The position numbers were made by a program, and so were the translations under genes. A stretch of 64,000 nt of DNA from Moniliella sp. 'wahieum' (taxonomy: Eukaryota), in assembly GCA_003971905.1 (NCBI GenBank), contig RSEE01000029.1:62001-126000 (forward strand), written 5' to 3'. Of the stretch, positions 1-63,709 are shown in pieces; the stretch's first letter is position 1; every line of letters starts with the position of its first letter. The notes under the pieces are model-generated. The model did not search any database, was not told the origin of the DNA, and worked only from the letters and a program-made list of their open reading frames with translations.

Positions 1-753
1 TTCGACGATTTGTACCCGCTGAACGTGAAATGAAATGGCCCTACTCCAGATTCCTTCCATATCCAGATCCCTCCCATATCCTTAGACTTGCATTTCCTAT
101 CCGATGTGCTTTGTGAGTTCTCCTCGCTCGCTTGTCCATCAAATTGTTCAGAGGCACCCCCTCGCCCGTAGGAACATGAAGGCATCCTGTTTTCCTAAGG
201 CCCAGCTACTGCAACAGATGGGCACGCGCGCCTGATGCGCGCCCTGCCACTTCTCAGGAGGACGGAGAGGTGCACTGCCCACACAGATCCACAGGGGCCT
301 CTCGAGAGCGGGCGAATCAGTGGAGTGGGGAACTGGGGTTTGATCCCATCCAGGATCTCAGATCTCATCGTTCTAACGTTCAGCGTTCAGTGAGTGCAAA
401 GCGTTGAAGTTCAACACAAAGCGCCTTTGGTTTGCGATGGTGAGCCGATAAAGAACCTATCCGAGAGAGGCATCTCTTGGCAGCGACTCAGTACTCAGTT
501 GCTCATCCGAGTCACCACATGCATATCCATTCGTGCGTTGGTGATTGAGGGCGTGTTGCAGCCGGGTTGCGGGGGCGGGTATACTTTATCCCATCGATAT
601 CACTACAAGTAGTCACTCCTTCCGCATGATGCACCTAAGGCCGCCTCTCTGATAAGCTGATGGGCAGGAGCACTAATAACCGGCACTCGGGACTCGATAC
701 TCGATAAGGCCAGCAGCCCAAGAAAGGAAACTAGGAACCAGTAGTAGGAAGCT

Positions 754-796
754 GCGTTAGGCGTTACGCGTTACGCGTTACGCATTACGCGTTATG
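754..796. repeat. Heptamer array (GCGTTAC)n = TTA-CGCG-TTA type
   Basis: gcgttag gcgttac gcgttac gcgttac gcattac gcgttat read directly. Confidence 0.9.
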
Positions 797-981
797 CCCG
801 ACGCCTTAGGTGACTACAGCGTGGATGTGCACGCGCTCATGTGACATGTGATGGGACCCAGGGAGCCGTGGCATGGCAACAGAAGCATGCCAATGGGACC
901 CCCCCGACCCACCCGGTCCCACCCCGTCGCGGTGATATGGTGCATGGATGCAAACATCGGGGTCAGTCATTGCCTAAAGTC

Positions 982-1128
982 CCTGAGTCACTAGTCATGA
1001 GTACTTAGTATTTAGTACTTAACGTACTGAGTACTGAGTACAGAGTCATGTGCATGTGAGTACGTACGTTGAGTACGTTGAGTACGTTGAGTACTCATGA
1101 ATACTGAGTCTGAGTACTGAGTGCATGA
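982..1128. repeat. Degenerate AGTACT-based heptamer array (TGA/TTA-GTAC-TGA) with 10-bp GAGTACGTT variants
   Basis: tgagtacttagt...gtactgagtactgagtac...ttgagtacgttgagtacgttgagtactca...ctgagtactgag. Confidence 0.85.
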
Positions 1129-2134
1129 GCGTAGCCGGACTACGGGGACACAGGACCGTGGTGCGTGGGAGAGAGGACGTTGCCCATTGTGCGATACCGC
1201 GTTAGATCGTAGACCGTGAGCTTGATCCTGGACAGAGCGTCGACGGGGACGAGCGAGGAGGAAGGTGTGTTACGTGGAGCGTAACTTGCTCTGAGATCCC
1301 AGCCTCCAATCGGAGGCATTGTGGCTGAGGTGCAGGAGAGAACGCATCGTTCTCCCGCTTAGTTGGAGATGTGCGCTCACCGGTCCCTACAACCCGATGA
1401 TGGCCGAGCTGGCTGCTCAACGGCAAGTACTGACTGGCCCAGCAAAGCGACTGTGCTGGCCTCGTCGCGCTCGAGTACCTAGGTCCGCGTCCCGGGATGT
1501 CGATGAGCGATGAGATCTGAGAACTGCGAACTGGATGCCGAGGCGCGGCTGGGCCACAGGGGCGGCGTTGGTGCGGATGCGGAGGCTGGTGGGCGCCCTG
1601 CTGTGGGCACGGACCCCAGTTGGACGCTAGGCCACCCAGCCCACCATGCTCTTTTGTGCGCGGCTTGCGTGGACGGCGTGGTGCTGTGGATGAGATCTGA
1701 GATGGGACACGCGCCAAGGCACGCTCATCGGCATCCTGGGCCCAAGGGAGCATGTGGGTATGTTTGCTCCTGCGTTGCTGACGGGAACGATGAATGCTGG
1801 GTCACGGGCCGGGGTCACGGGAGCAGCCGTCACGTGCAGGGGTGGCCGCGGGCCACGTGGCCTGCGAAGAACCAGCGGATCTTCTGGGCCGCAGGCGCAG
1901 GCCCTGAGGCCCACGTCAGGCCGATCAGAGTCAGAGGCAGTCCACTCCCCCCCCCTCAGGCCTCACTGCCCCCCCGCCGCAGCGCGGAAACGAAGCGCGT
2001 GGAGGCGCTGAGGTAAGCACGCAAAAATTTATTCCGGCGCACCGCGCCAGTGTGTCCTCTTCCTTCCCGCCGCTGCGTTCGCCCCTGCCTTTTCTCTTCT
2101 CCACCACCGCCCCCTCCTGCTTGCCTCCCTCGCC

Positions 2135-3015
2135 ATGTCCCTCCCCGACTTCAGCAACGCCGCCGCCCTCGCTGGCCTCGAGAAGTTCCTCGCCGACAAG
2201 TCCTACGCTGGGTATGTCGCCCCCCTCCCCCCCCTCTGCCTGATGATCATAACGCTATGGTCCGTGTTTCCAAGCCCAGCGGCGTAAGACCCCGCGACTT
2301 TTTGCTGTGAAGACAACCACTTCTATGGCACTCTGACCCTTCCCATCCTCCCTTGCCTTGCCCCTCCCCTTCCCCATACTGACCTTCCTCTGTGTTGCCA
2401 GCGCTGAGCCCCCAGGCCGATGTTGCCACCTACGATGCTGTCGCCGCCGGTGTCTTTGCCCAGTACCCCCACGTTGCCCGCTGGTTCGCCCACGTCGCTT
2501 CGTACGAGGCTGAGCACCCGGCCCTGAAGGGCGACAAGGCTGCTGCCAAGGCTCTGGCCGCTGCGGGCGTTGCCGGTGGCGCTGCTGCTGCTGCCCCTGC
2601 CGCCGCCGCTGAGGAGGAGGACGACGACGACGTTGACCTCTTTGGCTCGGACGACGAGGAGGAGGACGCCGAGGCTGCCCGCGTCAAGGCGGAGCGTGTT
2701 GCCGAGTACGAGAAGAAGAAGGCTGCCAAGGGCCCCAAGGGCCCTGCCAAGTCGGTCGTTACCCTCGAGGTCAAGCCGTGGGACGACGAGACGCCCATGC
2801 CCGAGCTCGAGAAGACGGTGCGCTCGATTGAGATGGAGGGCCTTGTCTGGGGCTCGTCCAAGCTTGTCCCCGTCGGCTACGGTGTCAGCAAGCTGCAGAT
2901 CACCCTTGTCGTCGAGGACGACAAGGTCTCGCTGGAGGACCTCCAGGAGGCCATCGAGACCCAGGGCGAGGACTACGTCCAGTCGACCGACATTGCTGCC
3001 ATGCAGAAGCTTTAA
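2135..3015 (+). CDS. EFB1: Translation elongation factor 1-beta (2 exons; intron 2212-2401)
   Basis: Exon 1 [24 protein letters not shown], then GTATGT...CTGAC...CAG intron. Exon 2 contains [57 protein letters not shown] probable 1-nt indel lies near the exon junction. Confidence 0.97.
2236..2341 (+). ncRNA. Intronic box C/D snoRNA, U18/snR18-like
   Basis: Box C TGATGA at 2241 and box D CTGA at 2333. Antisense element TGGTCCGTGTTTC (2258-2270) is complementary to the conserved LSU rRNA sequence GAAACACGGACCA. The host is the EF-1beta intron, as for yeast snR18. Confidence 0.88.
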
Positions 3016-6884: not shown

Positions 6885-6917
6885 CTTGAAGCTTGAAGCT
6901 TGAAGCTTGAAGCTTGA
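6885..6917. repeat. Heptamer array (CTTGAAG)4+
   Basis: cttgaagcttgaagcttgaagcttgaagcttga. Confidence 0.95.
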
Positions 6918-9605
6918 CGAGCAAGGCTCTATTATATAACATCGCAGGTTACATGTTACAACAGTCAACACCGGTACAAAGGAAGCAGGAGAGAGCTAGG
7001 ACAATGTTGGTCGTTGAACGTTGGTGCGTGATGCACTATATCGGTTTGGTCGACATTTTCCCCACTTGTCATGAACGTCATGAAGCTTCAAGAGCTTGAA
7101 GCTTGATTATTACATTGTTGACTAGTGACTAGACATGTTTCATCGCAATAAAGCCCTACTTGTGTGCGAGCTGAGGGATTCTCCTTGTTCAGTTCGTTGA
7201 ACGTGGTGAAGCCGGTGAGGCCTGAGGCCTGAGGCCCTAAGGCCTTGCGAGGCTGCCGCATGCTCAATCAGATCTCAGATGTGTAGTTCTATAGAATTTG
7301 TCGGAACGGATCCCAATCGGTGGGTGTAGTAGCATCATACTCAACAGTGTAGAAAAGAAGTTTTATGTACCCACACATGTGTTGCAGCCTGCTGCGCGCG
7401 GCTCAAAAGAAGTTAATAACTGTAGTCAATAACTGAGTAACTAGTCACCACTACTAGAGGGATATACTAGTGACTGGCCAATACTCAGCATAGTATCCAA
7501 CTTAGCAGATCCAAGTTCCCCAGAGATCTAGTCATTATAAATACATGGCCACGGTGCCAAAAGGAGGTCTGCTGAGACTGCAGTGGCAAACGTCTTTAGG
7601 CCTTCTTATAGATCCCTCATACTTCCGAAATGGCATCATAACATGTGTCACGGGCGCGGCCGGGCTTGCCATATCCCGCCTTGCCCGTGACAACATGCAC
7701 AACCGGCGAGATTGAATAAAACAGTGCAAGAAGGGGGACGATACAGGCACTGCTTTTTCGACAAACGGTAAACGAACCAGTAAGCCATCCTGACTACGAT
7801 CTTTGTGGAAGTAGCCTAGATCTCTTGATCTCTCACCGGCAATTCCCAGTTTTCTGTCTAATACCGTCAGTCGACGGGACTAAGCCGGGCCCACGGCATA
7901 ATTATGGACCGGTATAGTTTTAGTTTCGGCATCCATCCGTGGAGCCATGGAGCCTGTGAAGCGTGCTCAACTGTAGCCTATCTGACATTCTGCTCTCCGC
8001 GCCCGTGTCGGTCATGTTATTGTTGTGACGTGGGAGTGACGCGAAGACTATCCGGCAAAACTTCCGCTTCGATGGCTCTCCCACAATCGTTTCAGGCCCC
8101 TTGCCCATTTCAGGCCCCTGGATGGTCCGTCTCCCCTCTCTTTTTCTCTGTTCAACGTTCAACGTTCAGACAGGGAAAAGACAGGTTTCTCAACGCCGGT
8201 AGGCTAGCTGTTAAACATACCGTCACAATTCCTCAGCTTTGGAAACGTTATATGCACTCCACAGAAAACAGAGAGTATCATGTACGGTATACGCTTTCCT
8301 ATTTATCTATGCATTAAGGAAACCAATGGCAGGAGCCGCAGAGGGACCTGACCTGCTTCCGACACTTGGATGTTTGGGTAGGCTAAGCTGATAACACAAA
8401 AGCCGGGTGTTAGTCGGATAGATGAAGAAGTGTGCCTCATATGTCCCCCCACCTCGTTTTGCAATGTTCTGTTGAATACCGTAGGTCTCACTGCTATCCC
8501 CGGAGCATTTACCCACTTGCTCGGTTGATAATATTGACGCGATTGACGGTTGAAGTTGAAAACGTTGAACGTTGACATGTTGACGGGTCCTCGATCACTT
8601 TGATCGACTGGATGACCCTGATCGTGTACGATCGACGCTCACCCGATCATTACTAGATCATTACTAGATGACTTCGATCAGTATAACATTTATCAATCAT
8701 CCTGAGTCAAGGCTAGTCAAAAAGGCTCTTCGGCCGGATTTTGGTTCTCAATCTCCCCATCAGAAAATTGCCAAACAACCCCACGGCCGTGGTGATGATC
8801 GACGATCGTCCCCTCTCTCAGATATGATCCTAGTAATGCTGCAATCCGTAACGGAGAAAAGCACTGGAGGATCACACAGGAGAAAAGGGAAAGGTAAACG
8901 GGGTCGGCTCGTGGGGGCGTTACTTGGCACTGTGCTTGATGCCATTGGGGATGGCGTAGGGGAGAGACAGCTCTCCCCCTTTTTGCTTTTGCCTTTCAGG
9001 GGTTATGTCTATATTGACTCTCTATCGAGACAGGGGAGGAACAACACATGTACTCGTTTGTCTGTAAACAGAAGATGTTACCTTCAACCGCCCCCCCCCA
9101 CACCCCCTTTCTTACAGCCGAATGGACCCACATGGGCTGTTGGGTGCTTTTTGGGACCGGCTGCTTTTCTCTTGATGCGAATTATTTTTCTTCTTTAGCG
9201 ACTCTGTCATCCTGGCATATTAGTAGTCTTACCACAGGGCCGGCGCATATACACACTGTTGCCAAGCTATAGCCTAAAGCTCGCCTTAAGTCATGAGCCT
9301 CACCTTCTGTGTGGTTCCGTCCAGATCCGCCGGCAGTGTTTATAGAGGCGTTTTTAATCGAAAACCGCCGGAGTGTGTCTCACACGCCGCATTGCGGGGC
9401 GCCCATCTGGCAGGCGGTGGTCTGTTTGGAGATGGACAGCAAATGAGACGGTGCCACCACCCTACTGTGGGAGAGGCCATGGAGCCAGCATAAACGAATG
9501 ATTTGACTTTCCCACGAGGCAATATAGAAGCATCAGAGTTAAATGGCGAGTGTCAAGTCGCAGCCGCCCCTGCCGTGGCTCCAACCCGAAATTCGTAGCT
9601 CCAAA

Positions 9606-9702
9606 GGCAATGTGCCCGAGCGGTTAAGGGGATTGATTAGAACTCCAAATTCTAACCATCAATTAGGCTCTGCCTGCACAGGTTCGAATCCTGTCATTGT
9701 CG
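9606..9702 (+). tRNA. tRNA-Ser(AGA), intron-containing
   Basis: GGCAATG/CATTGTC acceptor stem, ATTGA-TTAGAA-[intron]-ATCAAT anticodon arm, long variable arm, GGTTCGAATCC, followed by a T-run. Confidence 0.95.
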
Positions 9703-9820
9703 TTTTATCTGTTTTTTTAAAATTTTTTTAAAATATTTGTTTGGGGAAAGATATCCTGTCACCAACTTGTAACACCAGGTGGAGCAATTCGCGGAAAAGG
9801 GTAGAGCTGGTCCAAGTGGC

Positions 9821-10062: not shown

Positions 10063-10204
10063 TGGTCCAGCTCCTATCTGCCTGAAGGGAGGGGGGGTCT
10101 AGGGTTAGGGTTAACTATGTCTCTCATCGCGGGGATGAATCGAACTGGCTGTTGATGCTCACTGAGCCGAGGCTCCAGGTATTCCGCGGTAATTCCGAAC
10201 CCCT

Positions 10205-10400
10205 TCCGTGGTATTCCGTAGTATGTCGTGGTATGTCGTGGTATGTCGTGGTGAATCCGTGTCATTTCGTGGCCATCGGGTTCTTGATCTTTTTTCGTTC
10301 CGTGGTATGTTGTGGTGTTCCGTGGTATTCCGCGACATGTGGTGGTAGTCCGCGACATGTCGTGCCATGTCGCGGTATGTCGGAGTGTTCCGTGGTGGGT
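10205..10400. repeat. Left subterminal 10-bp repeats (GGTATGTCGT/GGTATTCCGT)
   Basis: Tandem ggtatgtcgt-like units adjoining the left TIR. Confidence 0.85.
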
Positions 10401-11295
10401 TTTGCGAGGCGGCTAGAAATTCAAAAGAGTCAGGCTCAAAAATCTCGACCTGGCAATCGGTAATCAAATTTCATTACTGCAATGAAATGTTGAGAAAGAG
10501 CAACACTTGCGAGCGTGCAAAAATTTCGACCTGGCAATCAAGTAATGAAATTTCACTAGAAGACCACCGGGCCTACGGCCCGGCCAGCTGGGGCTTCGCC
10601 CCAGCTTGGTGCTTGGTGCTTGCTCGCCACCGTAGCCACCGGCCCACCGTTCCACGCTGGAGGATTTTTATCACCCACAAGGAGACCACCGGGCCGACGC
10701 GAAGCCCCAGCTGGTGCTTGGTTGCCACCGTAGCCACCGTGGAACCTTCGCCACCTTAGCCACCGTTCCCCCTTCGCCAACACTGACACTTGCGAGCGTG
10801 CGACTTGGGAGCACACTCGGAAGAAGAATCGTTAGCCCGGCGTTGGGCTTGGAGAAAAAATGGTAGAGTGCAAAAGGGCAGCAGCACTCTCACTCAATCC
10901 TTTTCAAGGCTATTAAGAGCGCTTAGCACCTTATACACCTACAATAGCAGTCTTCTGCGTGTCTCTTTTGCACCTATGCCAACAGCTTCTGCTCGTGAGC
11001 CTTCGTCTTCGATCGATCCCAGTGCTTGATAGCTTCCAGTTCCACTGTGCATTTCTGATGCCGATCTCCATTTGATTTCCGTTTCGTTTCACCAACAAAA
11101 CAGTACCCAACAAAGGCAGCACGCATATTGTTTTGCCCTTCTCTTTTCCTCGGGAATAAAATGTACCTTGGCACACGCAACACTTATAGTGTTTTTTGTC
11201 AGACACCAAGTTCGGCACCCAATGGGTGAGGGTAAATCCAAACCTCCTCGTCAGAAACGTCGTCATCCGCTGCAATTCGTGCTAATGCATCGAAC

Positions 11296-12880
11296 TCAGA
11301 ACTTCCTTCTCAAGGGTATGTGTCCCATGACCCACCCAATGTCGGCAAGTGGGACGACAATGTTGTTTACTGATGCGAACGTCGCTCTGTGAAAGCCTTG
11401 TTCATCGCGTGGTAGAGACGCATTACCTTCAGCATCAATCGGATGAGTTCTACCAACAATGTAGTATTCGGAGCCCGCTTCATCGGTCTCCACCCCAATG
11501 TAGTAGTCAATCAACATGAAAAGTGCCCATCGTGCGCCAATTGCTATACAATGCCTGCATTTGTTGTGAGTAGTTGCACACAGTGTCCTAGACGGGACGA
11601 GGCATTCTGACCCTGTTGCCCTCGAACACGTTGCCTGTTCTCATTTTTGGCCCCCACTCGGCTACTGCCCAGATCGATAAATGGGCGGTAGGGTCAATGT
11701 TGAACGAGCACAGCAACGCCGCATCCCCCCTTGCACCATCGAGCCCATCAATAATAGCTTCTCGTTTGTGATTCAACCCAACCGAAAGTGTGGTCATAGC
11801 TTGGGGGAGCATGGAATCCATGCGAATGCCAACCAAGTTATCCTGGTTCCTCCTGCTCGCCTCGTTAGCAAGGACAGGATACGGTTTGGTAAACGAACGG
11901 ATATGGCGGCCCAACCATCCCTGTTCCCATTCTGCCGGGGCGGTCCATATCGCCTGCCAATTGCCGTATCTCCACATGTTGTCAGCCCAATGAAGAGTGT
12001 TGTGCACCGAGATCGAATGTGGTTGATCTCTTCGTTCAGACCGTTTGGAACAGTGAAGTCGTGAAACCGTTGACAAAATGGCAGGGCCGTTGTTCGGAGA
12101 CGTTCGACGTCGGCAGCATACATTTTCCGTTTGACAAACAGCCTAAGCATCACGCTCCCACCAGATCGAGTATCTGCTGAGGCAGATAATGCAACTTGAC
12201 GAACGGATAAAGCATGCAACTCATATTGACTGCAATCTCAAACATGCGCATGCCGCTGTTACAAGCAGAACCAATCGAACGAGGCACTCCACTACAAAAC
12301 GAAGAAGGAAGAAACCTAATCGACCTGTGTTTCAAGGTTAGCTCATTCAAATCAGTATAAGAAACACAACTGTTTCGGGAATGAGGACGCACACTTCATC
12401 TGAAACTCGTTAAAAAGGTCAACATGGGCGGCACCCAAATGTATGGGCAATCTTGGATCACGTAGACCGTTCTTCTCAGATTGAGAAAGGTGGTGTGCAT
12501 GGGCTCAACAGGATGAAAGGAAGGGCACATATGATGATGAGAGGCGCTTTCAGGTTGAGGTAATGTCGGCCATCCTGTATCTGCCTTGAAACAATTCTGG
12601 CTTGCGACTGACCCATGGTCTTCAAGCTCTTGTGCGTTGTACTCTGCAGTTTGACCCAGTCTTCGGGTATGCGCAACGGAGAATGGATGGTATCAATATC
12701 ATCGCTTCCGTCGCCCAGCAGCGGGCAAATTTCAGAGGGATATGTTGTCGTTGGCCAATATACCCCACCCCCATGCCTCTTGCGCCCAACAATATCGCAA
12801 GGGCGGCACGCTCGCTCGCCGGACACACTTGCCATAGATGTGCTTGCTGTGCTTTAGCGTCAGCGATGTTGTACATTACC
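11296..12880 (-). pseudogene. Degenerate EnSpm/CACTA-type (CMC) transposase remnant
   Basis: Fragments NIADAKA..ASVSGERACRPCDIVG...VYWP, LPSSFCSGVPRSIG, and ISVHNTLHWADNMWRYGNWQAIWTAPAEWEQGWLGRHIRSFTKPYPVLAN resemble the conserved blocks of fungal Transposase_21-type proteins. Recognised by eye; multiple stops and frameshifts. Confidence 0.65.
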
Positions 12881-13131
12881 GTGGTCTGAAGAGTAAACGA
12901 CTCCAGGGGGCGGACCAGGGGGCGGACCAGGAGGCGGACATGATGATGGAGAGGACCGAGGGGAAAACCTGGCGAAGACGTGGAGAGTGGACCATCATGA
13001 GGGCCAGAGGGTGATATGTACTCCTTTGGAGCTCCGCGGACGTTCCCGGGGCCTCATTTTGCCGCATCGCACACGGCTAGTATATACTCCACAGGAGCGT
13101 ACATGTGCCGGCCCTCGGATGGGTGGACTTT

Positions 13132-13386
13132 TGATGAAACCTGGAGTCTGGATGGTCCTCGAGGGTGATACAATCGCACTGATGGTGGTGGTGGTGATGG
13201 TGGTCTAAGTCAACCAGCAACCCCTACAGAGGAGCATCAAGCTTCAGACAGCGAGTCGCCACCAGGGGCAAAACTGCGGACCAAGGACAACCAGGAGGGA
13301 GGAAACAAAACGGAACTCCTAGGCCGGCTTGAGGAGGACCTGAAGGGACGTTGGCAAAAGCACGGGCCACCCGGTGGCTCAGCAGG
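13132..13386 (+). repeat. Diverged dispersed repeat, copy 2, inside the TIR element
   Basis: Aligns with 9821-10062. Confidence 0.85.
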
Positions 13387-13863
13387 ACTGTTGGGACGTA
13401 ATAAATGGTACGTTTAGAGCTCTTTGAGGCGCCAGGAGCTCTCGGAGCTCGGTGGCGTGTGGGTATGCTGCGGAGGTTGCCAGGGGCTGTTCCCACACGC
13501 ACAGCGCAGGGCTAATATGCTGAGCTGTGGGGGGTCCGTGCGTCGGCGTTACTGGTCTGTGCACCTTCCCACCAGAACCACACTGCTTTTGCTCTTGTTG
13601 CATCAGTCCTCCTCTTACCGCCCCTTTCACAGTTGAATGATATATATACCCCCCCCCCCCTCCCCCCCTCCACACCGGTCTCCTCTTCCCCCTAACAACC
13701 GCCTTCCCGACATGCCTATCACTATATATTTCCACACTTTCCTGCAGACCAACCGAAGACCAAAACTGGGGTAAGGTGCTAACCAAAGATCTGTCGGCAT
13801 CTCAACAACTGATGCCTGCTGTCCTGTTGGCGACCAACCAATCGTCCCAGTACTGTCTTTGCT

Positions 13864-13950
13864 AGGGTGTACTGACCTGCTGGGTGTACTGACCTGATGT
13901 GTGTTGGTGTACTGACCTGCTGGGTATACTGACCTGCTGCTGGTTACTGA
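13864..13950. repeat. Short tandem repeat of GGTGTACTGACCTGCTG-like units
   Basis: 4-5 imperfect copies read directly. Confidence 0.8.
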
Positions 13951-14689
13951 TGCTGGGAGCTGATCTGCTTTGGGTTTATAACAATCTTCCTACTGGGTAC
14001 TTACATGCTTGGGCACTGACTTACATGGTATGCATGTTGGTATCATATATCAACCTCTGATGTGCTTGGTATGTTAACCCGTACTTCCGCAGTGAGAATT
14101 ACCGATAGCATGTCAAAGGGAGCATGCCACCATTTGTGATATCAAGCAACGGTACGATCGATTGCAGTGTGGATGGAACTTGCGCGCGAGGCGGCCCCAT
14201 TCTGCCTGTTCTGCCCCTTCCTGTTGCGCCTTCACGCTGCGTTTCCCTGATTAACGGCCTGAGGCCTGATTGCATCTTCTCCACCAGTATTGCCTTGCCT
14301 TGCTTGCCTCCCGTAGCACACCTTAGTAATACAATCACTATTAGCCCAACAGAGATGTCCCATATATCTAAAGGATCTAAAGTAACACAACTGCCAATGA
14401 GGCTAGTGAGGGCCGCATATAGGCCCCCAAAGTATTGAGCAATGTAACCCTGTACCGATACATTGCATTATAAGCTAACCCTAAGGCTTATAAGCTAACC
14501 CTAGTGTAACCCTAGGACGCCATTTCCATTCCGTGGTAACCCGTGGTAACCCTTGGTAACCCGTGGAGTTCTGTGGTGTTTCCGTGGTTGAAAAAAAATT
14601 CTAACCTGTGTGGTGTGTCTATGGATTTCGTTCTCACTTTTTTTTCAAGATGGAGGGGCGCACTTATCCCATAGAATACAACAGTATGA

Positions 14690-15037
14690 ACACGGAACGG
14701 GCACGGAAGAGGTACGGGAAGAGGTACGGAAGAGGTACGGAAGAGGTACGGAACGGGTACGGAAGTGGTACGGAAGAGGTACGGAAGAGGTACGGAAGAG
14801 GTACGGAAGAGGTACGGAAGTGGTACGGAACGGGCACGGAAGTGGTACGGAAGAGGTACGGAAGAGGTACGGAAGTGGTACGGAACGGGCACGGAAGTGG
14901 TACGAAGAGGTACGGAAGAGGTACGGAAGAGGTACGGAAGAGGTACGGAAGTGGTACGGAACGGGCACGGAAGTGGTACGGAAGAGGTACGGAAGAGGTA
15001 CGGAAGTGGTACGGAAGAAGTACGGAACGGGCACGGT
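14690..15037. repeat. Right subterminal 11-bp minisatellite (GGTACGGAAGA with GGTACGGAAGT and GGCACGGAACG-type variants)
   Basis: About 30 tandem 11-mers adjoining the right TIR. Confidence 0.95.
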
Positions 15038-15765
15038 ATGCCACGGAATCCAAACTACGGAATACTACGGAATACCACGGGAGGGGTACGGAATCACCGC
15101 GGAATACCTGGAGCCTGGATCAGTGAGGTTGATGACACACACCTCTCACTCATTTCGAAGACAAAACAGAGGGGGTAGTGGAGTGGACGATACTGCTTTC
15201 AAGCATATTACTAGCCTTGTCTCATTCATCGGCCCGTCTTCTGTATGATCCAAGAATAATATAAGGCACGATGAAGACATAGAATCTAAAGCGCCCCCCA
15301 TATGCTCTCAACAGGCTCAACGCCTCTCTTCCATCGCCTCAGCAGCCGGTGAGAAAAGGGACTTAGTACTGTAACTAGGGCTGTTGCCACGGTTCTTAAG
15401 CGTTATTCATCATCTTCGCTGATGGCAATCATACAGTCATGGAACGTTGTCAGTGAAGCCCGCAGTTCTCCAATGAAAGAAGTGATGCATACATTTATAG
15501 ACTACCAAACCGGAGGCGAAAACAGGAGAGAGCGAAGACACATCAGGTAAATGATAAGTCGGCCGTGAATGAAAGGAAGCCTCATGAAGAAGGCAAAACA
15601 GACATGTCGACTTCACCAAGCCAGAGACTACGGCTTGTGACTTGATCCCATATAGAAAAACAGTGCCGACGGGATATATTTCGAGGGGGAACGGAGAACC
15701 TTGTAACTAATACAACTGATGGTACGCTTGTGACTCTAACAACCAACACTAAAGAGAACCCCGAC

Positions 15766-24338: not shown

Positions 24339-26101
24339 CTAGTTTCCGTCCAAGAAGTTCTTGATCCGAGTCCCGATCGAGATTTTCTCCCCCTTGAGAA
24401 GCATGTCCTCGGCATCCCACCGTGCCGTATCCTCCTCGATCGCAGCCAGGCATGAGTGTAGATCCATCTCCGACGCTTTCACCATCTTGGTACGCCACAG
24501 CAGTTTGAATCCCACGTAGCCCACAGCGCAATACGCAATGGGTAGGTAGTTGCACACGAACGTCCCTGAGTCCCAATGGCCCGGACGGAAAACAGTCCAG
24601 CCACTGAACAAAGCTACGCAGAATACCACGCCCAAGGTCCAGTACGCCATTGGTTTGATCAACCGTGGTGGTAGGGTAACGCAGAGGTGGGAATGTTTTG
24701 GGCGGCCATACCAGCGCGGAAGCGTAAGTAGGTGATGGTGATAAAGAACCAGGTCATAAGACCGCCAAGGGAGGACAGACTGGTGAGGTACCCAAACACC
24801 TTGGCTGAACCTTTGCTAACGGACAAGTAAGAGATGCTGCTAAAGAGCCAGACGGCAACAACGGCCACAATGGGAATCCCGTTGGACCACGTGTAGAGGA
24901 ACACGCGAGGTGCGTGACCTCGCTGCGCCAAGGCAATCAGCGACCGAGATCCCGAATAGACGCAGGTAAACCCAGCGCTGCATGCACTGGTGATCACACC
25001 GGCATTGACGATGCTGGGGAGAACTTTGATCCCTGCCGCTTTGATGGCGATCACGTAGGGGCTGGACGCTGCCGTGCCGTCCTGGCCCAGGGCAGGGTTG
25101 TTGGGACTGACAATGATCCCGATCGCAATGACGCCGAGAATGTAGAGCAAGACAATCCGGATCCACACCGTTTTGAGGCAAACGATCAAAACGCGACGTG
25201 GGTTGCGACACTCGGTGCAGGCCAAGCACAGTTGCTCCACACCGATCATACTGAATGTGGCTTGGATCGTGCAGGCAAAGAAACCCAAGAACCGGCCGGT
25301 CGTTCCAGGGATCCCAAGGTACTGTTGGAACGGACCATAGTCGCTGTGGCGCCACCAGTGGAAACCGATCGAGTGACCCGTAGGCCCGCCGCCAGCTGAA
25401 ATGACGATACTGCAAATGATCAAACCGGTCATGAGGATCACCTTGAGCGAGGTGAAGTACATCTCGCCATAGCCATAGAAGCTAGCCGAGATGACATTGA
25501 GAAGCAAGGAAACCACTTGCCCGACCGCAATCCATACCGCCGGGTTGATCTTGTCCGGACCCCACCAATAGCTCCACAGTGTAGCTTGCGCTGAAAGTTC
25601 CGACGCAGCTATAAGGATGGTGGAGATAATGTAGTTCCACCCATGGTTGCGCTCAGAGCCGGGTCGACGAAGCGGCCGGCAAGACGGATATGGCCGCCGT
25701 TTACGGGCAGGTAGGCGCACATGGACGATACCATAAACACGATCGAAACCACCACCGAGGCCATCAAGCAGTAGGCCATGAGCAGACCCAGCGGACCCCG
25801 TTCTGGTACGAAGATGCAATGCCAATAAAGATGCCCGTTCCTGTTGCAAGTCCAGTCCCAGGCCTTGTCAGCACCACGCGTCACGTCACGAAGCACCGCA
25901 TTCTCCATCACCTCTCCCTTGGCCTCGGCCTGGTCACATACCAATGACACCCCCAATACTAACGGCGATCAGACCGCCTGGCTTGATCCCACGCTTCAAG
26001 CCCAGTCCATCATAGTCGTGCGCCCAAGGAGAGTCGGAATCGGTAACAGAGTGCGCGTAGTCGGTGTCTTCTACGATCACCTTTTTCTCCAGGTCCGACA
26101 T
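24339..26101 (-). CDS. Amino-acid permease (APC/YAT family)
   Basis: LKRGIKPGGLIAVSIGGVIG, GTGTGIFIG, GPLGLLMAY, AGRFVDPAL, GWNY, GRFLGF, ECRNPRR, SPYVIAIK, LPSIVNA, SRSLIALA; frameshifts. Confidence 0.93.
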
Positions 26102-26573
26102 GTGGTTGTGGAGAGCGACTGAGGGTGCGAGAACGAAAACCGTGGCGAGTGGCGGGGAATGCTGGGTATACGGAATACCCAAAGAGCAGGGCAGTGGCAC
26201 TTAAAGCTAAAGTATTCATCTCAACTCACCGAAATGATTGATGATGGACGAGGTCTCGAGACTCCACACACTGTGGGTCTCCCAGGCGATAAGGGCGCTT
26301 TTCTCGCCCCACACCCCTGAGATAAAGTCGGAGTATAATCTGCTCTGACAGACCTGGTGCTGCTGACCTGCACCCTTCAAGCTTCAGGCCTCACAATCTC
26401 CTCAAGCTTCAAGCTTCACATACTACCCCGGGGCTTGTAGCGCTTATCGATTATCGACATTGCACGCAAAAGACCCGTGTTCAGGGCCGACGGGCTAACC
26501 TTGAAGCGATTGAAGCTCCGTCTCAAAACGTGAGATTGGAGCTGATGGCGCTGATGGAGCTCTTGAAACGCTT

Positions 26574-28367
26574 GATATAACGTACGTTGCCCGCGGGCAA
26601 CTTAGGACGACCATGCCCCCAGAGTGGCGTAGTGCCTACTATCTAGGAACGGAACAGGCGGCGGAGCCTTTTTGCACATTTTCTGGGCGCAGCATCACGC
26701 ATAAGCGCTAAGCTCAGTGCTCACACCTGCTACGTGTCCATTCAACATTCAGCCATTCAGGTCGAACGTGCGTGCGCAAGCTTGTTAGCCTTCGCACGAA
26801 CTGATTAATTGATCGGCCTTGGACCTTGGCCTTACCAGATCTTACCGGTTAATCGTGCTAGACGTTAACTACCGTTAAACGTTAAACGTTAACCCCTGTT
26901 AGTAGGCACTAGATATTGATGATCGATGACCCGATGACCGGTTCCCCATTCCCGGTAACCGGTAACCCTTCACTAGCTTCACGCTCAGGTGAGCGCCAGC
27001 CCTGACCTTAGGCCTTAGGCCTCATTAATGAGATACTAAAACATGGGCTTGGCAGGGACCTATCCTTGTCGTTGAACGTTGAACACCGGTGACCACTCGA
27101 TCATGATCAAGATTATCGCAGGAGGCAGAGACTGGTGCTGTGGGGTTCCCCAGGGTTTTACCCGCGCCCCGCCCATATTGCGCAAAGATTAATGATTGCC
27201 CGCGGTCTGCTCTCTGTGACATGTTATGAGAGACTCAGCGCTCAGCCCCTCAGCCCCTCAGCGCTCACTGCGCTCACTACTAGTCACTTCGTTTGCAAGT
27301 GGCACGTGGCGCTCGTCTGGGCAGCTGTGTGCCCTGTTGTGCCCCCCTCCCCCGCGCTGCTCATTCCATCTCCGCCCTCTCTGTATACCCGAACGTCACG
27401 CATCACGCTCTCCGTGTGCAGGCCGAAGGAGCCTTGCACCGTTGTTCAGCTGTGAGTACTGTGAGTGCTCAGACTGAGCACTGGTACTAAGCCAACTTGT
27501 TAAATCCCTGAGGAATATGCCATCAGGTGCATCAGGGAATACCAGGGAATACCTAAGCCTGAGGCCTGTGCCTGAGGCCATGATGGATGTCGATGCACGA
27601 TGACGCGTGACGATGAGGTACCTGTGTACCGTGCACGCCCTGCGTGGGACAGCTGCACTAGGCACTGCTGTTGGGCTGCTGTGGCAAGTGGAGCAGATAT
27701 CGTTCACGGAGGGTTTTGTGGCTTAGTCCCGGCCAATCAGGCGTAGATTGTCCCTGGATTCCATAAGAGATGTGTCAGACATGTCAGATCCACAGGTCCC
27801 AGATCTCAGATCTCCGATTTCGCATCTTATCTTATCGATTAAGTATTACGTATTGATCCCCTGGAAAGTCGCGCTCACGCTTGAATCTTGAACACAGCCT
27901 CATTCTGGCAGCACCCGACCGTGCCGCGGACGGTCGAGGGTTGCGCGTCCTGCCGTCGCGCATCGCATTATATACCCACTCCTCCTGCCCTACTGAGGCC
28001 TTGGCGTGAAGGGTTACCTGTTCCCGGGAAGCGGTAATCAGTATCTAGCAGCGAGTAGCTAACCGGTAGCTTGCAATGGATCTAGTAAGGCCAAGGCTCA
28101 AGCTTCAAGCTTCAAGCTTCAAGACCGATCAATTAAACAGTCTGTGCTAAGGCTATAATCATTGGGCACGTACGTGCAGCCTGAATGTTAGATGGGCAAG
28201 TAGCAGATGTGGCATGCATAATGTGACATGTGATCCCTGCGCTTATGCGTGATGCTGCGCCCAGAAAAGGTGCAAGGTTCCAGCGCCTGTTTCCCTACAT
28301 AGTAGCCACTACGCCCCTCTGGGGGCATCGTCGTCCCAAGTTGCCCGCGGCGTACGTACGTTTTATC
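26574..28367. repeat. Diverged long inverted repeat: arms about 26574-27024 and 27991-28367, spacer about 1 kb
   Basis: For example ccgcgggcaacttaggacgaccatgcccccagagtggcgtagtg and ttttctgggcgcagcatcacgcataagcgc match the reverse complement of 28239-28350. Confidence 0.9.
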
Positions 28368-28743
28368 GTTTTAATCGTTAACCGTGCTGTGAACGTATTG
28401 AATGTCATTTGGGTTACGATGTAAGACCGCGAGTCTACTTCTAAAAAGGACGTGCGGGGGCCATGTCAAAATCTCACCGCCAAGCGCCACCAACATATCG
28501 TTCCTAATTGTCGGCTCATTACGCGTTACGCTCATTTCTCTTGCCCTGTTGGTGGCAGTTCGCGTTGATTGGCATCTTGGCCTGGACGCCATCTGCATAC
28601 TATAGCGCCGTGCGAAACACCAAACATAGCGCTGCCAACAGAGAGCCTATTGCAAAAGATGGATCCGCTTCTCATCTCTCGAGCTGTATGGCCTCTTGAC
28701 TCCTTCTCCCAACACACCCAAGCCCTCTTTGAGCGGAGCAACA

Positions 28744-34497: not shown

Positions 34498-37394
34498 GGG
34501 GGTGGGCAGGGGTGGAGGTGTTGACGGTGGGAGGAAAGGCGGACCCGAGAATGGAGACTTGAGATGTGGACAAGTCGTCCATCTGGTCGGGTGCCGAGCT
34601 GACGCGGCCCCACATCGATGACGTCGGCCATCCATCGATATTCAACGTTGCGACCAGCCTCCTGAACATTTCAGTGGGTGGTGCTCCCACTTTCAATGTT
34701 CAGCTACATCACACATCACGTGTCGCATGTCACATGTCACGCCCAAGGGACTCGCTCTGACCGATGACACGCGGCCGCTTACGCGATGTGCAATTTGAAA
34801 CGCAAGTGGGCGGCGAAACTGAGACAGAGTGTGGCAGGCGGGGGGGCGGCATAACCCACAGCACAGGCAGTGGTGTGATCACGAGAGGACGATTGCCTGG
34901 CGCGCCCTCGAGGATCCAGTCGCCGCACGGACCAGCCCAGAATGCACCGCCACCCTCTTCCCAGATCCTCGTAGAGTAGCCATGGCCATCTAGACACGCA
35001 GCCAACTCTATTACATGGACCCACCCTCCCACCCCGCGATATAGATGTGGGGCCACGATCATTGCAACCAAACCCACACAAGTTATATAGTCGCGCCTGT
35101 GTCGGATTGTCCTGCGCGATGGTTCATCTCAGCCACAACGCATGCTTCCAGCCCCGAGCCCCTGTCTGTCCCTCCTCCCCCCGCCACCGCACCATGCACT
35201 GCGGGAGATAGGCCCGTTTGGGCGAGGAAAGATAGCAGGATACGCGGTTAGAGGAGAAACCACACCCAAGCCTCTCTCTCCAAAGACACTTTTGAAAAGA
35301 CTCACATGCGAACTTTTTAACGCCTCCAACAGCACAAGCTTCAAGCTTCAACCTTCAAGACAGATGGAAGAGATGAAGGTGCATGAGAGGGGGGCGGCAT
35401 CTTCGTCTTCATCCGCCTCTTCGATCATCGACATCGATCCCCCGACTGCATAAGAGGAAACAGGGACGATATATAAAAGCTATACCTATACTGTGTACAC
35501 ACGCAACACAGGGTGCACACACCTTTCGAACCCCGCGCTTCCCCACACACTCCGATTTTCTTATCTCGACTTTCAAAATGGGGCATTCTCGCATCTCAGA
35601 CTGAGATCCCAGATCTCATACTCACCCACTGGCCACCGGCCACGTCCATAGTAATAGTAGACACGCACACAAAATGTAATGCGACGGATCATCTTGATGC
35701 ACTTGATGAGCGCAGCATCCCTCCCCGATCATGCCATCTTCCTAAGGATGAGTAGGTCCGAATGTACCCCGCGAATCGAGAATCATCGATATCCATGGAT
35801 CACATGCACACCCACAATATCCATTCTTACTCTGCAAACTGCAACAGGAACCAATCCGTCCATTCTGATGATTCACATGTTCACAATGATCGATGATGTC
35901 GATGATGGATGATTCGTTGCATGTCACATGTCACGCCTGACTTATCCCCGTCCTGTCGCCTGGGCGCTCAGCTCAGCGCGCTCAGCTGAGCCGGACCGAG
36001 GTCAGAGATGCGGAATGGTGCGTAACCTACCCCATGTATGGGGGTGATTAATGATTGCAGGCGCTGCCTACTGGTACCCAGGAAGCGTATGCTTCGCGTC
36101 GGCCGAAGAGACGGAGCGATTCGCCGGATCGCGGAGCTAGCGAAGAACTACACACCTACATTTTGCTTTTCAAGACCATTCAAGACCATCTCGTATACGC
36201 TTCTCGTGGAATGGACAGAGGCCGACGATGAATCGATGAGGATCGATGAGACAGCTAGTGCCCCTCGCAGGAGCAATCCATTAAGAGGATGAGATGAGAG
36301 ACCTCAGTTGAAAAGCCTATGAGGCAGAGGAGACAGGGCGGGACTCCCGATGTTACTTGGAGTGAGAATGACGAGGATCATGCTGGCTGGTTAATGGGGA
36401 CTCAGAAACGAAGGCATACAGAGTTGGCGTATCCCCGGTCTTGCTTGTTCCGTACGAACTACTAGATTAGTATACTGTGTTGTTCCTTGTTACGTTAAGC
36501 TTTAAGCGTTACTCGTCTTTACGTTTCCTTCTGGCAGCGTGGGAATACAGAAGGAGATAACTAGGTATCGGTTACATGGTTACAGGCGAACATGGTATGG
36601 CCCAGGTTGGCTCGGTCGAGTATACTTAGTACTAGCCACGCCGCGCCCGCGCCCACACCCCGCGACCCACACGGCACACATCAGATCCAGAGTCGGAGAC
36701 GAAAACACGTGAGGAACGAAAAAGTGGGGCCGTGCCTGCACAGTGTGGATTGGGTCATCGATAATCGACTGGAACGCCTGAGGGCCGAGGCTCAGGGGCT
36801 CAGGCCTGTGAGGGTCTCATCGATCATCGATCACCGATCATCCCCGCGCCACTGGCACACGCAGGCACTTGGCTGGCGCGGGGGCCCGCTTTCTCCCCCA
36901 CGGGCATTTTCGGTGGCAGTGTGGGATACTCAAGTAGTCAAGTACTCGGTACTCAATACCACCCGAGTAGGTCGACGGTACCTTACAGTGCCCTCCAGTG
37001 CCCTACCCGAGTAATGCTATGCATACGTGGCAACGGACCGACTTTGGACCACGTACTTCGTCTTGTGTGGCGTACTTGACTTAGGTACTTAGACACAGTG
37101 CTTAGACAGGCGTAGACGTGCATACAAAACAAGAGGCTGGCCGCAGGGTGGACGCGCTGAGGCTCAGTACTCAGTCCTCTCGGGAGAGACATTTTTGGGG
37201 CATGTGGAACGTGCGACATATAGGCGCGGCATGCACATATGTGAGCGCACCCGGTGAGCGTGTAACAGGTGACATGCTTATTGTGTGCGGCCTGAGGCCA
37301 AGGGCTAAGTAGGCCCCGTACGCGTCTAGGCTGTGTTGAGTGGGCAGGATATGCATCGCAGGAACCGATTCTTGGCTGGATGGTGGGACGATGG

Positions 37395-37503
37395 TGGTTG
37401 AACGTGTTGAACATTTAGTACTTAGTAGTGTGGCACTGAGTACTGATTACCAGTTACCGGTTACCAGTTACTAGTTACTAGTTACTGTGTATGCACTAGT
37501 TAT
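37395..37503. repeat. Mixed heptamer arrays (TTA-GTAC-TTA, TGA-GTAC-TGA, TTA-CCGG-TTA, TTA-CTAG-TTA)
   Basis: ttagtacttag...ctgagtactgattaccagttaccggttaccagttactagttactagttac. Confidence 0.9.
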
Positions 37504-38819
37504 GCATTATGCCAGTGTTGTCTCGTCGCTTGGATTACTATAGTGCCCTCCTCCGGTATGCGCTCGCACGCCGAAAAAAAACACGGACGGTGCGCCAGAG
37601 GATGGACAGAGATGGGCCAGAATGGTAATGAAGAGTACAGAAGGCCACACGAAAAACGAGAGACAGGACCCTGAGCGCTTGGCTCGATCGGGTTCCAGAT
37701 CCTGATCGATGATCCAGATTCAGATTCAGATTCAGATTCAGAGCCAGAGCCAGACTCAATGGAATCGATTCCGAGCCAGTTGATGCTGTTCGGGCCCGAG
37801 CGATCATGGATCACTAGCTCGACCGAGCTGAGCGGCTGAGCCACAACTTGTCACTGCAGCGCTCAGAGAGGCGCAGCCAACCCACGTCCCACAGGCTTGT
37901 TCGACGCCCGAGGTTTGAAATATGCACCCGAGGGACGCCGAGCGCAAGCTGGCGTGAGCGCAGGCGGGCGGCATGGGGGCAGTGTGTGCCAGTGTGTGCC
38001 AGTGGCTAGTGGGGCGTGGCCAGTGCCTGGAGGGGCCGAGCGGACGTACCTGTCTCACACCCCCGCCTGTGAAACATGGTGCATTGCGCAGACACACCCA
38101 CCCCCTCCCACTCTCCCCGCCCCCGCCCCCGTCCCCCGAGAGCACACTGAGGTACTGAGTACTGACCCACTGACGTCCGAGTGGACTGGGCAGAGTGACA
38201 CACACGAGCGTGCGTCATACATCAGACACACTCGATCATGCACCACGCCCAGGCATCCTGTGCGCGCCAGGCGACAAACCACGTCGAATGCGCTGATGCG
38301 CTGATACTGAGTACGGGAGTAAGTGAGACGACCGACGCTCGGTCGATGAAGATCATCGATCAGAGGATCGTACCTGCGTTCTGCACCCAACCGTTGTGTT
38401 GTGCCCAGCGTGACCAGTGGCCAGTGGCCGGCCGGTGGGGCGAGACGAGCGCCGCACAAGTGTGGAGGAAAAGCAAAGCTGCCAGTCGCCAGGACTCAGT
38501 CCGTCGGTCCAGACACCTATGGCCTGCGGTCTGTCAGCATCCAGCACTGGCCCCGTGTTGCTTCATGTGCTCCCGCCTAGAAGCTATGGAAGACAGAGGA
38601 CGCACTACGCACTGTGCGCTACAGCTCAGTTTGACAGCTTGAGCGTTCAGGCTCAACCGCTCAGCCTTCCTGCCCGGTCGCCGCGGGTACATAAAGCACC
38701 CATCTTCTCCCCCTTGCTGCAAGCGCCCGAACCCACCTCCAACTTTCTTCTGATCCACTTCCTTCCCTACTACCCACCCACCACCACACCAACTCCCCCT
38801 TTCCCTTCCGATACCAACA

Positions 38820-43183: not shown

Positions 43184-44250
43184 CTCCTTAACCCCCCTTC
43201 CCCCAGGCTCCGTAACGCCCTCCTCCCTTTCTCGCCCCTTTCGCCACCCGCCCCTCCCCTGCCTCTACGTAGAGATGCTGATTCGTACACGCGCTGGAGC
43301 TCTTGCAAGTTACCAACCGCCTTGTCCCCATCCATCTCCACCCCTAGCTCCATCCCTAGCTCCGTCCCTTTTCATTCCTAGCTCCATTCCTAGCTCCATC
43401 CCCATCTGCGTCTCGGTCTCGGTCTCGGCCCCCATTTGATGTCTCGTTCCCGGGCGCGATGTAGTAGCTAGTAGAGTCCCTCCACCGTTCCCCGAATCTT
43501 CCCTAAACCCACGACCGGTCCCTGCGGGTCCGCCGCGCTGTCATGGCTCACGTGTTGGGCTGTGGCGGTGTGGTGGTGGTGGTGGAAGGCGCTGGATACA
43601 CTGGACGGGAGATGGACCAAGTCGAGAGAATTGGAGGGGGGCTCCCGCCATGCGCTCATCAACTGTGCGCACTTTTTGGCCCGCCCCCTGCCCGAGCCCG
43701 AGGCCGCGACGGTGTATACAGTGTAGTACTACATCGATACCAATGCGCAAGGATGTACTTGCGCTAATGCAATGGCAGGAACGGGTTAGATCGGTGGCTG
43801 GTGTGGATGCAAGCGTCTCGGGTAGGGTCCCGTGTGACATGTGACGCGTGAATATTGAATGCGAGCCAAGATGTCGCTGACGTTGATCGTGGGCCGTGGC
43901 CGTGGATCCAGCCCCCTACTGCATCTCGGGTTGCTCTTGGCGAGATGGATTGGGGAGTACAATACGTTGTGCGGGGTCTTTGTGTGTTGTGTTGTGTGGG
44001 ATGGAGGTGAGGCCAGAGGGAGGAGTGGGAGGGGTGTGGTCCACACGTCACATGTCACACTGTCGCATGTCGTTCCCCGTTCTTGGATCTTCCATCTCCT
44101 ACCTGGGTCTCGGACCTCCTGCATGCTACCTACCTTCAGGCCTACGTCGTCCGGTCTGCCGTGGCGTGTGCGTGCTGGACGAACACGATGGTGCAGGCTC
44201 AATCCAAGACCCTACACATTCCGAGTTTCAAGTAGCAACTGTGTTTTCCA

Positions 44251-44300: not shown

Positions 44301-44314
44301 TTCCCAACCTGTCT

Positions 44315-53535: not shown

Positions 53536-53583
53536 AATCATTAATCATTAATCATTAATCCAACGTTCAACTTGAACGTTCAC
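53536..53583. repeat. Heptamer arrays TCA-TTAA-TCA x3 and AACGTT type
   Basis: aatcattaatcattaatcattaatccaacgttcaacttgaacgttca. Confidence 0.9.
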
Positions 53584-62969: not shown

Positions 62970-63061
62970 GGGGTTTGCTTTTATTTTGTTTTTGTTTTTT
63001 TTTAAAAAATTGAAAGTGTTGCCACCTGTCATGAGCAACTTTGGCAGAAGTAATAAAAAGA

Positions 63062-63145
63062 CGTTCCATGTTGGGCTCGAACCAACGACCTCCCGATGGC
63101 CGTGAATTAACAGTCGGACGCTCTAGCCAACTGAGCTAATAGAAC
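63062..63145 (-). tRNA. tRNA-Asn(GTT), intron-containing
   Basis: Reverse complement GTTCTATTAGCTCAGTTGGCTAGAGCGTCCGACTGTTA-[intron]-ATCGGGAGGTCGTTGGTTCGAGCCCAACATGGAACG. Confidence 0.93.
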
Positions 63146-63447
63146 GGATGTGTCTGTTGTCCATGAACTCATTTCCACTTCTTTGGGGTCACCTGACCTG
63201 CCGGTCTGACCAGCCTCCCTCCTCTCTTCGTTTGCCTGTGATGGTTTCTTCTGAGCTACCTCCTTTACATTAACAGAGCTGGCCATTTTCTCCTGGTTTA
63301 CTTGGTGTGCACGTAACAACTGCACCTGTCATTATACTGGGAGTGGGGTATACACGGCATGCAGCGTGCCGCACTTCAAGCTTCATCGATCATCCTTCAT
63401 CGATCATCCGAAGCACCCCTCTCGTTTTGTGGATGCATGGGTGACCA

Positions 63448-63474
63448 GTGACATGTGACATGTGACATGTGACA
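63448..63474. repeat. Heptamer array (GTGACAT)4
   Basis: gtgacatgtgacatgtgacatgtgaca. Confidence 0.95.
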
Positions 63475-63709
63475 GGCCGAATGAAGACAAGTTGAAATGT
63501 TTCTAGCGACGGAGATGATGATCAATCAACCAATCGACGATGGACCCAAGCTTGGCGTGGAAATTGAACAGCTTCAAGCTTCAAGCTCCCCCGCCTGATG
63601 GAGAAGAACGAGGTGCGATTTCAACGGCAGCAGCCTTCTCCGTCATCGCGTCACCGCCCTGCTCCATCTCCCTCCTCCCCACCTTCACCTTCTGCTGTGC
63701 TCGGGGTCC

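Follow-up and report, generated by a model that had tools for sequence, protein, structure and literature searches.

The window analysed here is a stretch of 64,000 nt of contig RSEE01000029.1 from Moniliella sp. 'wahieum' (positions 62,001 to 126,000), to which all in-window counts refer. It is eukaryotic DNA with a G+C content of ~57% and carries genes of fungal type, namely an EF-1-beta-like first exon, a DEAD-box helicase, an amino-acid permease, a GH127 gene, NifU/Isu and Snu114; gene models across the window are only partial. The permease fragment shares 51-56% identity with proteins of Sporisorium, Pseudozyma, Ustilago and Thecaphora, and the Snu114 fragment ~60% with Ustilaginomycotina proteins and 72% with one further protein; on these sequence similarities, the source is treated as a deep-branching Ustilaginomycotina-like basidiomycete that lacks a close relative among the sequences compared. 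Between the genes lie short units in which two copies of the triplet T-N-A enclose a 4-bp palindrome at a period of 7 bp, and the same window contains one non-coding terminal-inverted-repeat (TIR) element of 4,970 bp. The units, called scars hereafter, probably are the accumulated donor-site scars of a family of cut-and-paste DNA transposons.

A hit was defined as TNA, a 4-bp palindrome and a second TNA with the same N, unless any N is stated. The window holds 97 hits, as compared with 1.6 expected from 20 order-3 Markov simulations, which also supplied the expected counts for the control spacers. None of the 15 other X-N-Z spacers was enriched (2-11 observed, 2.0-6.2 expected), and TNA combined with 2-, 6- or 8-bp palindromes (periods 5, 9 and 11) was not or barely enriched (9 versus 6.7, 3 versus 0.5 and 1 versus 0.0, respectively). 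An earlier reading of the sequence only had proposed that dozens of arrays with different sequences share this one rule, and these counts bear it out: each of the 14 examples it cited was recovered in place or displaced by at most 4 bases, and where it had recognized at least 14 of the 16 possible palindromes, all 16 occur in the window, with AATT at 10464 and TATA at 14043 and 23311 completing the repertoire. Same-N TNA pairs at a spacing of 7 number 155, of which 97 have a perfect palindromic spacer (chance 1/16) and 31 more a spacer with one mismatched pair, which looks like decay of scars. Allowing any N gave 113 matches in 91 arrays (75 single, 11 double, 4 triple and 1 quadruple); the two N were the same in 97 pairs, complementary in 9 and otherwise related in 7. 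Because N is the same in 97 of the 113 pairs, the TNA itself must have been directly duplicated. Unrelated control DNA of similar G+C content (37,130 bases, L001-L005) gave no hits; it consists of five metagenome loci that match 20 bases taken from the inverted arm of the element. These five loci were rejected as copies of the element, their flanks being unrelated, and represent chance or other-organism matches.

The anatomy of the single scars was then read from the length over which period-7 identity extends, which in 62 single units was most often 12 bp (20 units), followed by 13 bp (15), 14 bp (8) and 10 bp (7). The basic unit is 12 bp long, ab-TNA-b'a'-ab-TNA or TNA-cd-d'c'-TNA-cd, that is, a direct repeat of a 5-mer with two inverted bases between the copies; with a modal identity of 12 bp, it is therefore not the 14-bp duplication that plain duplication or slippage would give. 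Five exact 7+7 duplications have a TNA core but no palindrome, and each of them is a rotation inside TTA/TAA arrays. The flank from which the palindrome derives is the left one in 30 of the 97 hits, the right one in 34 and either one in 22, while any class in the 15 control cores held 0-6; the junction rule of the sequence-only reading, ab-TNA-cd-d'c'-TNA-cd or ab-TNA-b'a'-ab-TNA-cd, accordingly fits 86 of the 97 hits. The near equality of left and right types (30 and 34) reflects strand symmetry. Direct 5-mer repeats containing TNA peak sharply at a spacing of 7 (27.7 per 1000, against a baseline of ~2-4 per 1000), with lesser peaks at spacings of 14, 9 and 8.

Two rarer classes stand beside this +7 form, whose total length is 14 bp. 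The +9 class, in which the whole ab-TNA-cd is present twice with two bases between the copies, comprises 16 cases with a TNA core; in 14 of them, the two bases inserted are cd or ab in reverse complement, a relation that holds for 9 of 82 cases with the other 15 cores (binomial P = 2e-11). The +8 class, in which one base is lost and two inverted bases are gained, has 6 members for TNA and 3 in all control cores together. Palindromic (P) nucleotides in 14 of the 16 +9 cases and in the 6 +8 cases support the hairpin-type excision proposed earlier. The following scars serve as examples:

354..367, unstranded: scar GATC-TCA-GATC-TCA, from the array and palindrome scans
960..1130, unstranded: nested pile-up of scars, TGA/TTA/TCA with GTAC, CTAG and ACGT, including two +9 scars GT-TGA-GT-AC-GT-TGA-GT
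6885..6917, unstranded: longest TNA array, CT-(TGA-AGCT)x4-TGA-cg, in which the left flank CT gives the palindrome AG|CT
8533..8548, unstranded: +9 scar AT-TGA-CG + CG + AT-TGA-CG, a full 7-bp duplication plus two P nucleotides
13232..13250, unstranded: CA-TCA-AG-CT-TCA-GA, a 7-bp insertion in one of three paralogous copies only, from alignment (hit at 13237)
27451..27466, unstranded: +9 scar TG-TGA-GT + AC + TG-TGA-GT
28098..28123, unstranded: array (TCA-AGCT)x3-TCA-AG, in which the right flank AG gives the palindrome
38146..38160, unstranded: +8 scar AC-TGA-G + GT + AC-TGA-GT, one base lost and two P nucleotides gained
43835..43858, unstranded: mixed array TGA-CATG-TGA-CGCG-TGA-ATAT-TGA, whose middle palindrome is underivable from its present flanks
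53536..53560, unstranded: array (TCA-TTAA)n
63448..63474, unstranded: array (TGA-CATG)x3-TGA

In only 6 of 58 single events is cd of the inferred target the reverse complement of ab; since the targets are so rarely palindromic, the event itself makes the palindrome. Apart from T-N-A, these targets display no base preference. A comparison of paralogous sequences within the window provides a view of one such change. A dispersed repeat of ~250-300 bp is present in three copies at 85-90% identity (9820-10060, 13130-13385 and, inverted, 33400-33660), one of them within the TIR element and one just outside it; the repeat may consist of captured DNA, or it may itself be a small mobile element, a second one besides the TIR element. 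In the three-copy alignment, only the 13.2-kb copy carries 7 extra bases at CA-TCA-AG, which give TCA-AGCT-TCA. The arms of an inverted duplication of ~400 bp in the permease/GH127 upstream region (26574-26973 and 28006-28367, 77-88% identity) differ mainly by many indels in array sequence, among them some of 21 (3x7), 7, 9, 8, 22 and 18 bases, in an alignment too diverged for calling single events.

Three other models of the scar were considered and rejected. A 5-bp duplication (TNAcd plus two P bases) fails on the +9 class and the resident element, both of which duplicate full 7-mers; a duplication of the 3 bp TNA alone, with tips of the element left behind, fails on the spacer, which tracks its flanks and takes all 16 forms; and an offset-nick hairpin, by reasoning on the scar data, would predict the spacer d'c'b'a', unlike that observed.

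Fully inverted forms, TNA-cd-d'c'-TN'A, had also been reported in the sequence-only reading and are present as nine perfect 10-bp palindromes, as compared with ~1.6 expected for a given N pairing; eight of the nine are at 5527, 6785, 7081, 1088, 10546, 53175, 53573 and 53722. Their arms reach no further than 5 bases, and they may represent longer P-nucleotide tracts. Repeats of period 8 with TCA at 27241-27262, 26738-26760 and 36789-36804 (for example CTCAGCCC x 2.8) fall outside the simple rule; in them, a 7-bp duplication seems to be accompanied by a single additional base, which does not qualify as a P nucleotide.

Replication slippage offers a quite different origin, in which the units would be heptamer microsatellites with hairpin-prone sequences that arose and grew by slipping. 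Exact tandem arrays of at least two units (period 7 being counted from 14 bp upward) number 59, 65, 9 and 7 at periods 7, 6, 8 and 9, against simulated means of 3.6, 12.7, 0.8 and 0.4 in 20 order-3 Markov runs; period-7 arrays as long as 4.7 units occur, self-complementarity could make an array more prone to slipping, and part of the later growth may be due to slippage. Slippage does occur in the window, as the non-TNA array (TCCAAGG) x 7.4 at 44253 illustrates. Yet slippage requires a pre-existing repeat and copies whole units, whereas the form seen most often here measures 12 bp and has a two-base inverted junction, and it accounts neither for the inverted dinucleotides of the +9 forms nor for targets that were not palindromic beforehand. 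Nor would it confine itself to one core: a palindromic unit, rotatable to x-y-z-N-z'-y'-x', is found in 35 of the 59 period-7 arrays, and z-N-z' is T-N-A in 32 of those 35. The share of arrays with at least two units, 16 of 91, needs no special growth process. Each scar adds a TNA site, and a considerable fraction of the TNA sites in the dense blocks is scarred, so that repeated hits may suffice to build the arrays, to which slippage may add. We regard slippage as quite unlikely to be the source of the units, and the claim of a non-slippage origin in the sequence-only reading is supported by the modal 12-bp unit with its inverted junction and by the restriction to T-N-A cores. The TCCAAGG array itself (44253-44304) is the longest period-7 array of the window; it is non-palindromic, lacks a T-N-A core and looks like an ordinary slippage microsatellite.

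The amount of sequence in scars was measured by iterative removal of exact scars, which took out 103 events (83 of +7, 14 of +9 and 6 of +8) or 755 bp, whereas the same procedure with eight control cores took out 1-8 events. The 755 bp correspond to 1.2% of the window, or to 2.8% if only the sequence outside long open frames (stop-free frames of at least 150 codons, which cover 57% of the window) is counted, and the share of exact scars rises to ~6% in the densest block. Overall, there are ~1.6 exact scars per kb, with densities of 5-8 per kb in the blocks 1-1204, 5696-7861, 25868-28629, 34642-37839 and 63123-64000 and of zero in the blocks 30981-31898, 40541-40998, 55914-56560 and 59946-60545. 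The gene-poor stretch 9200-20700 (G+C 0.49-0.54), which contains tRNA genes and the TIR element, has few scars (0-1.3 per kb). By these figures, the earlier statement that intergenic DNA is filled with such units is too strong, and they do not show the units to be a bulk source of intergenic sequence. Two scar-rich blocks are representative:

25868..28629, unstranded: divergent upstream region of the permease gene (minus strand) and the GH127 gene (plus strand), with 22 hits (8.0 per kb)
34642..37839, unstranded: scar-rich intergenic block, with 16 hits (5.0 per kb)

Exact scars occupy 164 bp in the two 2-kb bins covering 26001-30000.

As far as the partial gene models tell, the five dense blocks sit upstream of genes, which suggests that scars prefer 5' regions. 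The intergenic clustering that had been noticed earlier is confirmed, with 88 of the 97 hits outside long frames and nine inside (1511, 1691, 1956, 8152, 8159, 23311, 23325, 38156 and 44048); scarcity in long frames is expected because +7 shifts the reading frame. This distribution would also fit protein-binding sites selected in promoters, such as those of a dimeric factor with TGA/TCA half-sites 7 bp apart, the more so as TGA/TCA cores account for 47 of the 58 single events. All 16 spacers are found, however, and the spacer is set by the two adjoining bases rather than by a fixed motif, which agrees with the earlier argument that a single transcription-factor motif is inadequate; moreover, TTA/TAA cores are present too, and the use of C/G at N (82% at events) is close to that of background TNA sites (70%). 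Selected binding sites are thus a very unlikely explanation. An assembly or sequencing artefact is extremely unlikely: the pattern avoids coding sequence, obeys flank rules and decays by point changes, and known error modes yield none of these.

A candidate for the kind of mobile DNA that could leave such scars resides in the window itself:

10158..15127, unstranded: terminal-inverted-repeat element, non-coding, 4,970 bp (inverted-repeat scan and sequence reading)
10151..10157, plus strand: left copy of the target-site duplication, GTTGATG (GT-TGA-TG)
15128..15134, plus strand: right copy of the target-site duplication, GTTGATG
10194..10404, plus strand: left subterminal 10-bp repeats, TTCCGTGGTA-like
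14692..15027, plus strand: right subterminal 11-bp satellite, ACGGAAGAGGT x 30.5

The element ends in 5'-CTCACTGA...TCAGTGAG-3' and has inverted arms of ~66-75 bp, with the inverted repeat 10170-10235 / 15051-15116 at 89% identity. Its flanking GT-TGA-TG is a perfect 7-bp duplication that conforms to NN-TNA-NN; a 3-bp duplication was disfavoured as a reading of the same site, since it needs two extra two-base coincidences. Two systematic scans of the window found it to be the sole convincing pair of TIR and 7-bp duplication; further pairs were chance-level candidates only (for example 52426/53143, AGCTGCT), and no further copies of the element ends were found elsewhere in the window. Pfam scans covered 20 of the 109 window frames of at least 150 codons and, between 5.5 and 20.2 kb, 31 frames that reach 110 codons or more; at E<=0.01 there was no match in the 15 of these 31 frames that overlap the element. 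The element is probably non-autonomous, because it is without a Pfam-recognisable frame and its frames look non-protein. The sequence-only reading had called for a transposon with a 7-bp NN-TNA-NN duplication behind the scars: an element of this description exists, and the link from it to the scars has one duplication to go on.

A food-metagenome run (0.07 share) compared with positions 1-20000 gave short, low-depth contigs, with no joints and no indels at arrays, in data too thin to reveal indels. Eight pieces were listed; four of them lie in the element and match the window without a difference (11729-11928, 12172-12325, 13362-13576 and 14438-14619), and the piece at 4280-4509 has 2 differences in 230. 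Short interstitial telomere-like repeats of TTAGGG/CCCTAA type occur at 10095-10120, just outside the left end of the element, and at 14478-14515, in its right part.

Taken together, scars and element suggest the following course of events. A family of transposons would integrate through a 7-bp staggered cut centred on T-N-A, so that a copy of ab-TNA-cd comes to lie on either side of the element. When the element is cut out, the flanking ends would be sealed as perfect hairpins exactly at the border between element and duplication, and host enzymes would nick each hairpin 2 nt from its tip, turning cd into cd-d'c' and ab into b'a'-ab. TNA would then form the end of each opened duplex, followed by a self-complementary overhang of 4 bases, and end joining that retains one 4-base end would produce ab-TNA-cd-d'c'-TNA-cd or ab-TNA-b'a'-ab-TNA-cd, a net gain of 7 bp. 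Retention of either end would make the mirror +7 forms equally frequent, which matches the observation. In rarer outcomes, both duplication copies would remain with two palindromic bases (+9) or one base would be trimmed (+8), and duplicated TNA sites that are hit anew would grow into arrays. From the form of the scars we infer that hairpins are intermediates, that they are opened by a 2-nt rule and by what route the ends are joined, and likewise that the family of the resident element, rather than another family with a 7-bp duplication, wrote them.

Scars by themselves do not prove that an element once sat between the copies, and there is one element for 103 exact scars. Both facts would suit a non-mobile nuclease, for example a domesticated transposase, that makes 7-base staggered, hairpin-sealed breaks at NN-TNA-NN whose repair writes the scars without any insertion and excision. 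We consider such a nuclease improbable. A duplicated staggered interval with hairpins at both ends is the product of integration followed by excision, while a break alone duplicates nothing unless both overhangs are filled before sealing; furthermore, an element with exactly the matching duplication is present in the window.

Several observations nevertheless weigh against excision scars as the explanation. The palindromic spacers of 11 of the 97 hits fit neither flank, as in the middle unit of 43835-43858; no +11 scars, in which both 4-base ends would be kept, are among the scar classes of the window; and after its second TCA, the 13.2-kb copy of the dispersed repeat has GA where the simple rule predicts AG. 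The +7 outcome is more uniform than the heterogeneous Ac/Ds scars described in the accessible part of PMC5873905. No transposase was found in the Pfam-scanned frames (20 of the 109 long frames and the 31 frames in 5.5-20.2 kb). Finally, the window has only one element with a 7-bp duplication, and T and A would occupy positions 3 and 5 of a random 7-mer in ~1 case in 20, so that the link between element and scars is, taken alone, modest.

The proposed course was compared with known systems that form hairpins. Cleavage by hAT transposases has a 1-nt offset, and RAG coding ends arise by cleavage exactly at the border, after which Artemis opens the hairpin ~2 nt from its tip and leaves a 4-base self-complementary overhang. 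V(D)J coding ends resemble the present scars in that a perfect border hairpin gives even palindromes such as cd-d'c', and even palindromes point to cleavage exactly at the border rather than with a 1-nt offset. The element ends, 5'-CTCAC, presumably do not match the hAT-type end consensus. As far as the available text of PMC5499845 goes, hAT, Transib, RAG1 and a Mutator-like element place hairpins on flanking DNA, which host Artemis-like enzymes open. Ac/Ds scars in yeasts comprise deletions and P nucleotides and are affected by Pso2, and their palindromes centre on the complement of the base adjoining the element (PMC5873905). The hAT footprints of plants, Saccharomyces cerevisiae and Candida albicans are like the scars described here in that both duplication copies stay and junction bases are inverted complements (PMC5873905, PMC5499845, both as far as accessible). 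The palindromes of hAT are odd-centred in the same part of PMC5873905, in contrast to the even cd|d'c' of the Moniliella scars, and hAT, whose footprints the sequence-only reading had cited together with those of CACTA, is therefore not the best analogue. Its duplication is 8 bp (7 in hAT7) as compared with 7 bp here, where a single scar outcome dominates. Transib and RAG make 5-bp duplications (2-5 bp in the clade, from the accessible text of PMC12730594), unlike the 7 bp here, and nothing in the window points to a RAG-like protein.

Fungal DNA transposons with 7-bp duplications are represented by hAT7 of Pucciniales, which is defined by its transposase, and by Kyakuja (Kojima 2025, PMC12730594, in the text available). 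Both share with the present case a basidiomycete host and 7-bp target duplications; the accessible part of that account gives neither an NN-TNA-NN target nor scar arrays for them. Kyakuja, a KDZ lineage of Agaricomycotina, has 5'-CA..TG-3' ends without inverted repeats in the same text, whereas the element here has 5'-CT..AG-3' ends and arms of ~70 bp. Measured against hAT, the 7-bp duplication fits hAT7, the centring of the scars does not, and no hAT dimerisation domain was found in the Pfam-scanned frames. Measured against Kyakuja, the length of the duplication fits, and the ends and inverted arms do not.

PIF/Harbinger and IS5-type elements insert at T-N-A and duplicate 3 bases. P-type excision leaves behind pieces of the element's termini instead of P nucleotides, and Galileo has a target consensus unlike that of the scars; no THAP-type transposase was seen in the frames scanned. 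Tc4 and PIF/Harbinger have a T-N-A target as here, but with a 3-bp instead of a 7-bp duplication, and Galileo and other foldback elements of the P superfamily share the 7-bp duplication and long structured inverted ends. The partial texts consulted give CTNAG as the insertion site of Tc4 (10.1101/2023.11.06.565293) and 7 bp as the duplication of Galileo (PMC2775673, PMC4168063). With its 7-bp duplication, 5'-CTCACTGA ends and subterminal 10-11-bp repeats, the element fits none of the known 7-bp-duplication families compared, going by their descriptions. Within the open-access literature, neither a 7-bp NN-TNA-NN target nor heptamer scar arrays were found described.

Excision scars with P nucleotides are textbook knowledge, usually seen singly in reversion assays. 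The scars of this window are dense and uniform enough to read from them the target (NN-TNA-NN) and, on the proposed course of events, border cleavage, the 2-nt opening offset and the preferred joining outcome. If this were true genome-wide, it would explain how palindromic heptamer repeats come into being, identify one source of indels in promoters and supply naturally recorded data on end joining in a basidiomycete. A broader proposal is that the scars were written by an unclassified fungal cut-and-paste lineage with a 7-bp NN-TNA-NN duplication, perfect hairpins like those of RAG/Transib and long structured ends; that heptamer tandem repeats arise mainly from scars hit again and again, which would also be a leading source of promoter indels; and that the genome records tens of thousands of transposition events together with the 2-nt hairpin-opening rule. 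This proposal as a whole is a tentative one, against which we would lean slightly.

An inverted repeat at 9604-9706 and 16663-16766, 7 kb apart, was considered as a pair of element ends and rejected. On the two sequences, ARAGORN in bacterial mode made no call. They are 97-100% complementary and read as two inverted tRNA-like genes, each apparently containing an intron.

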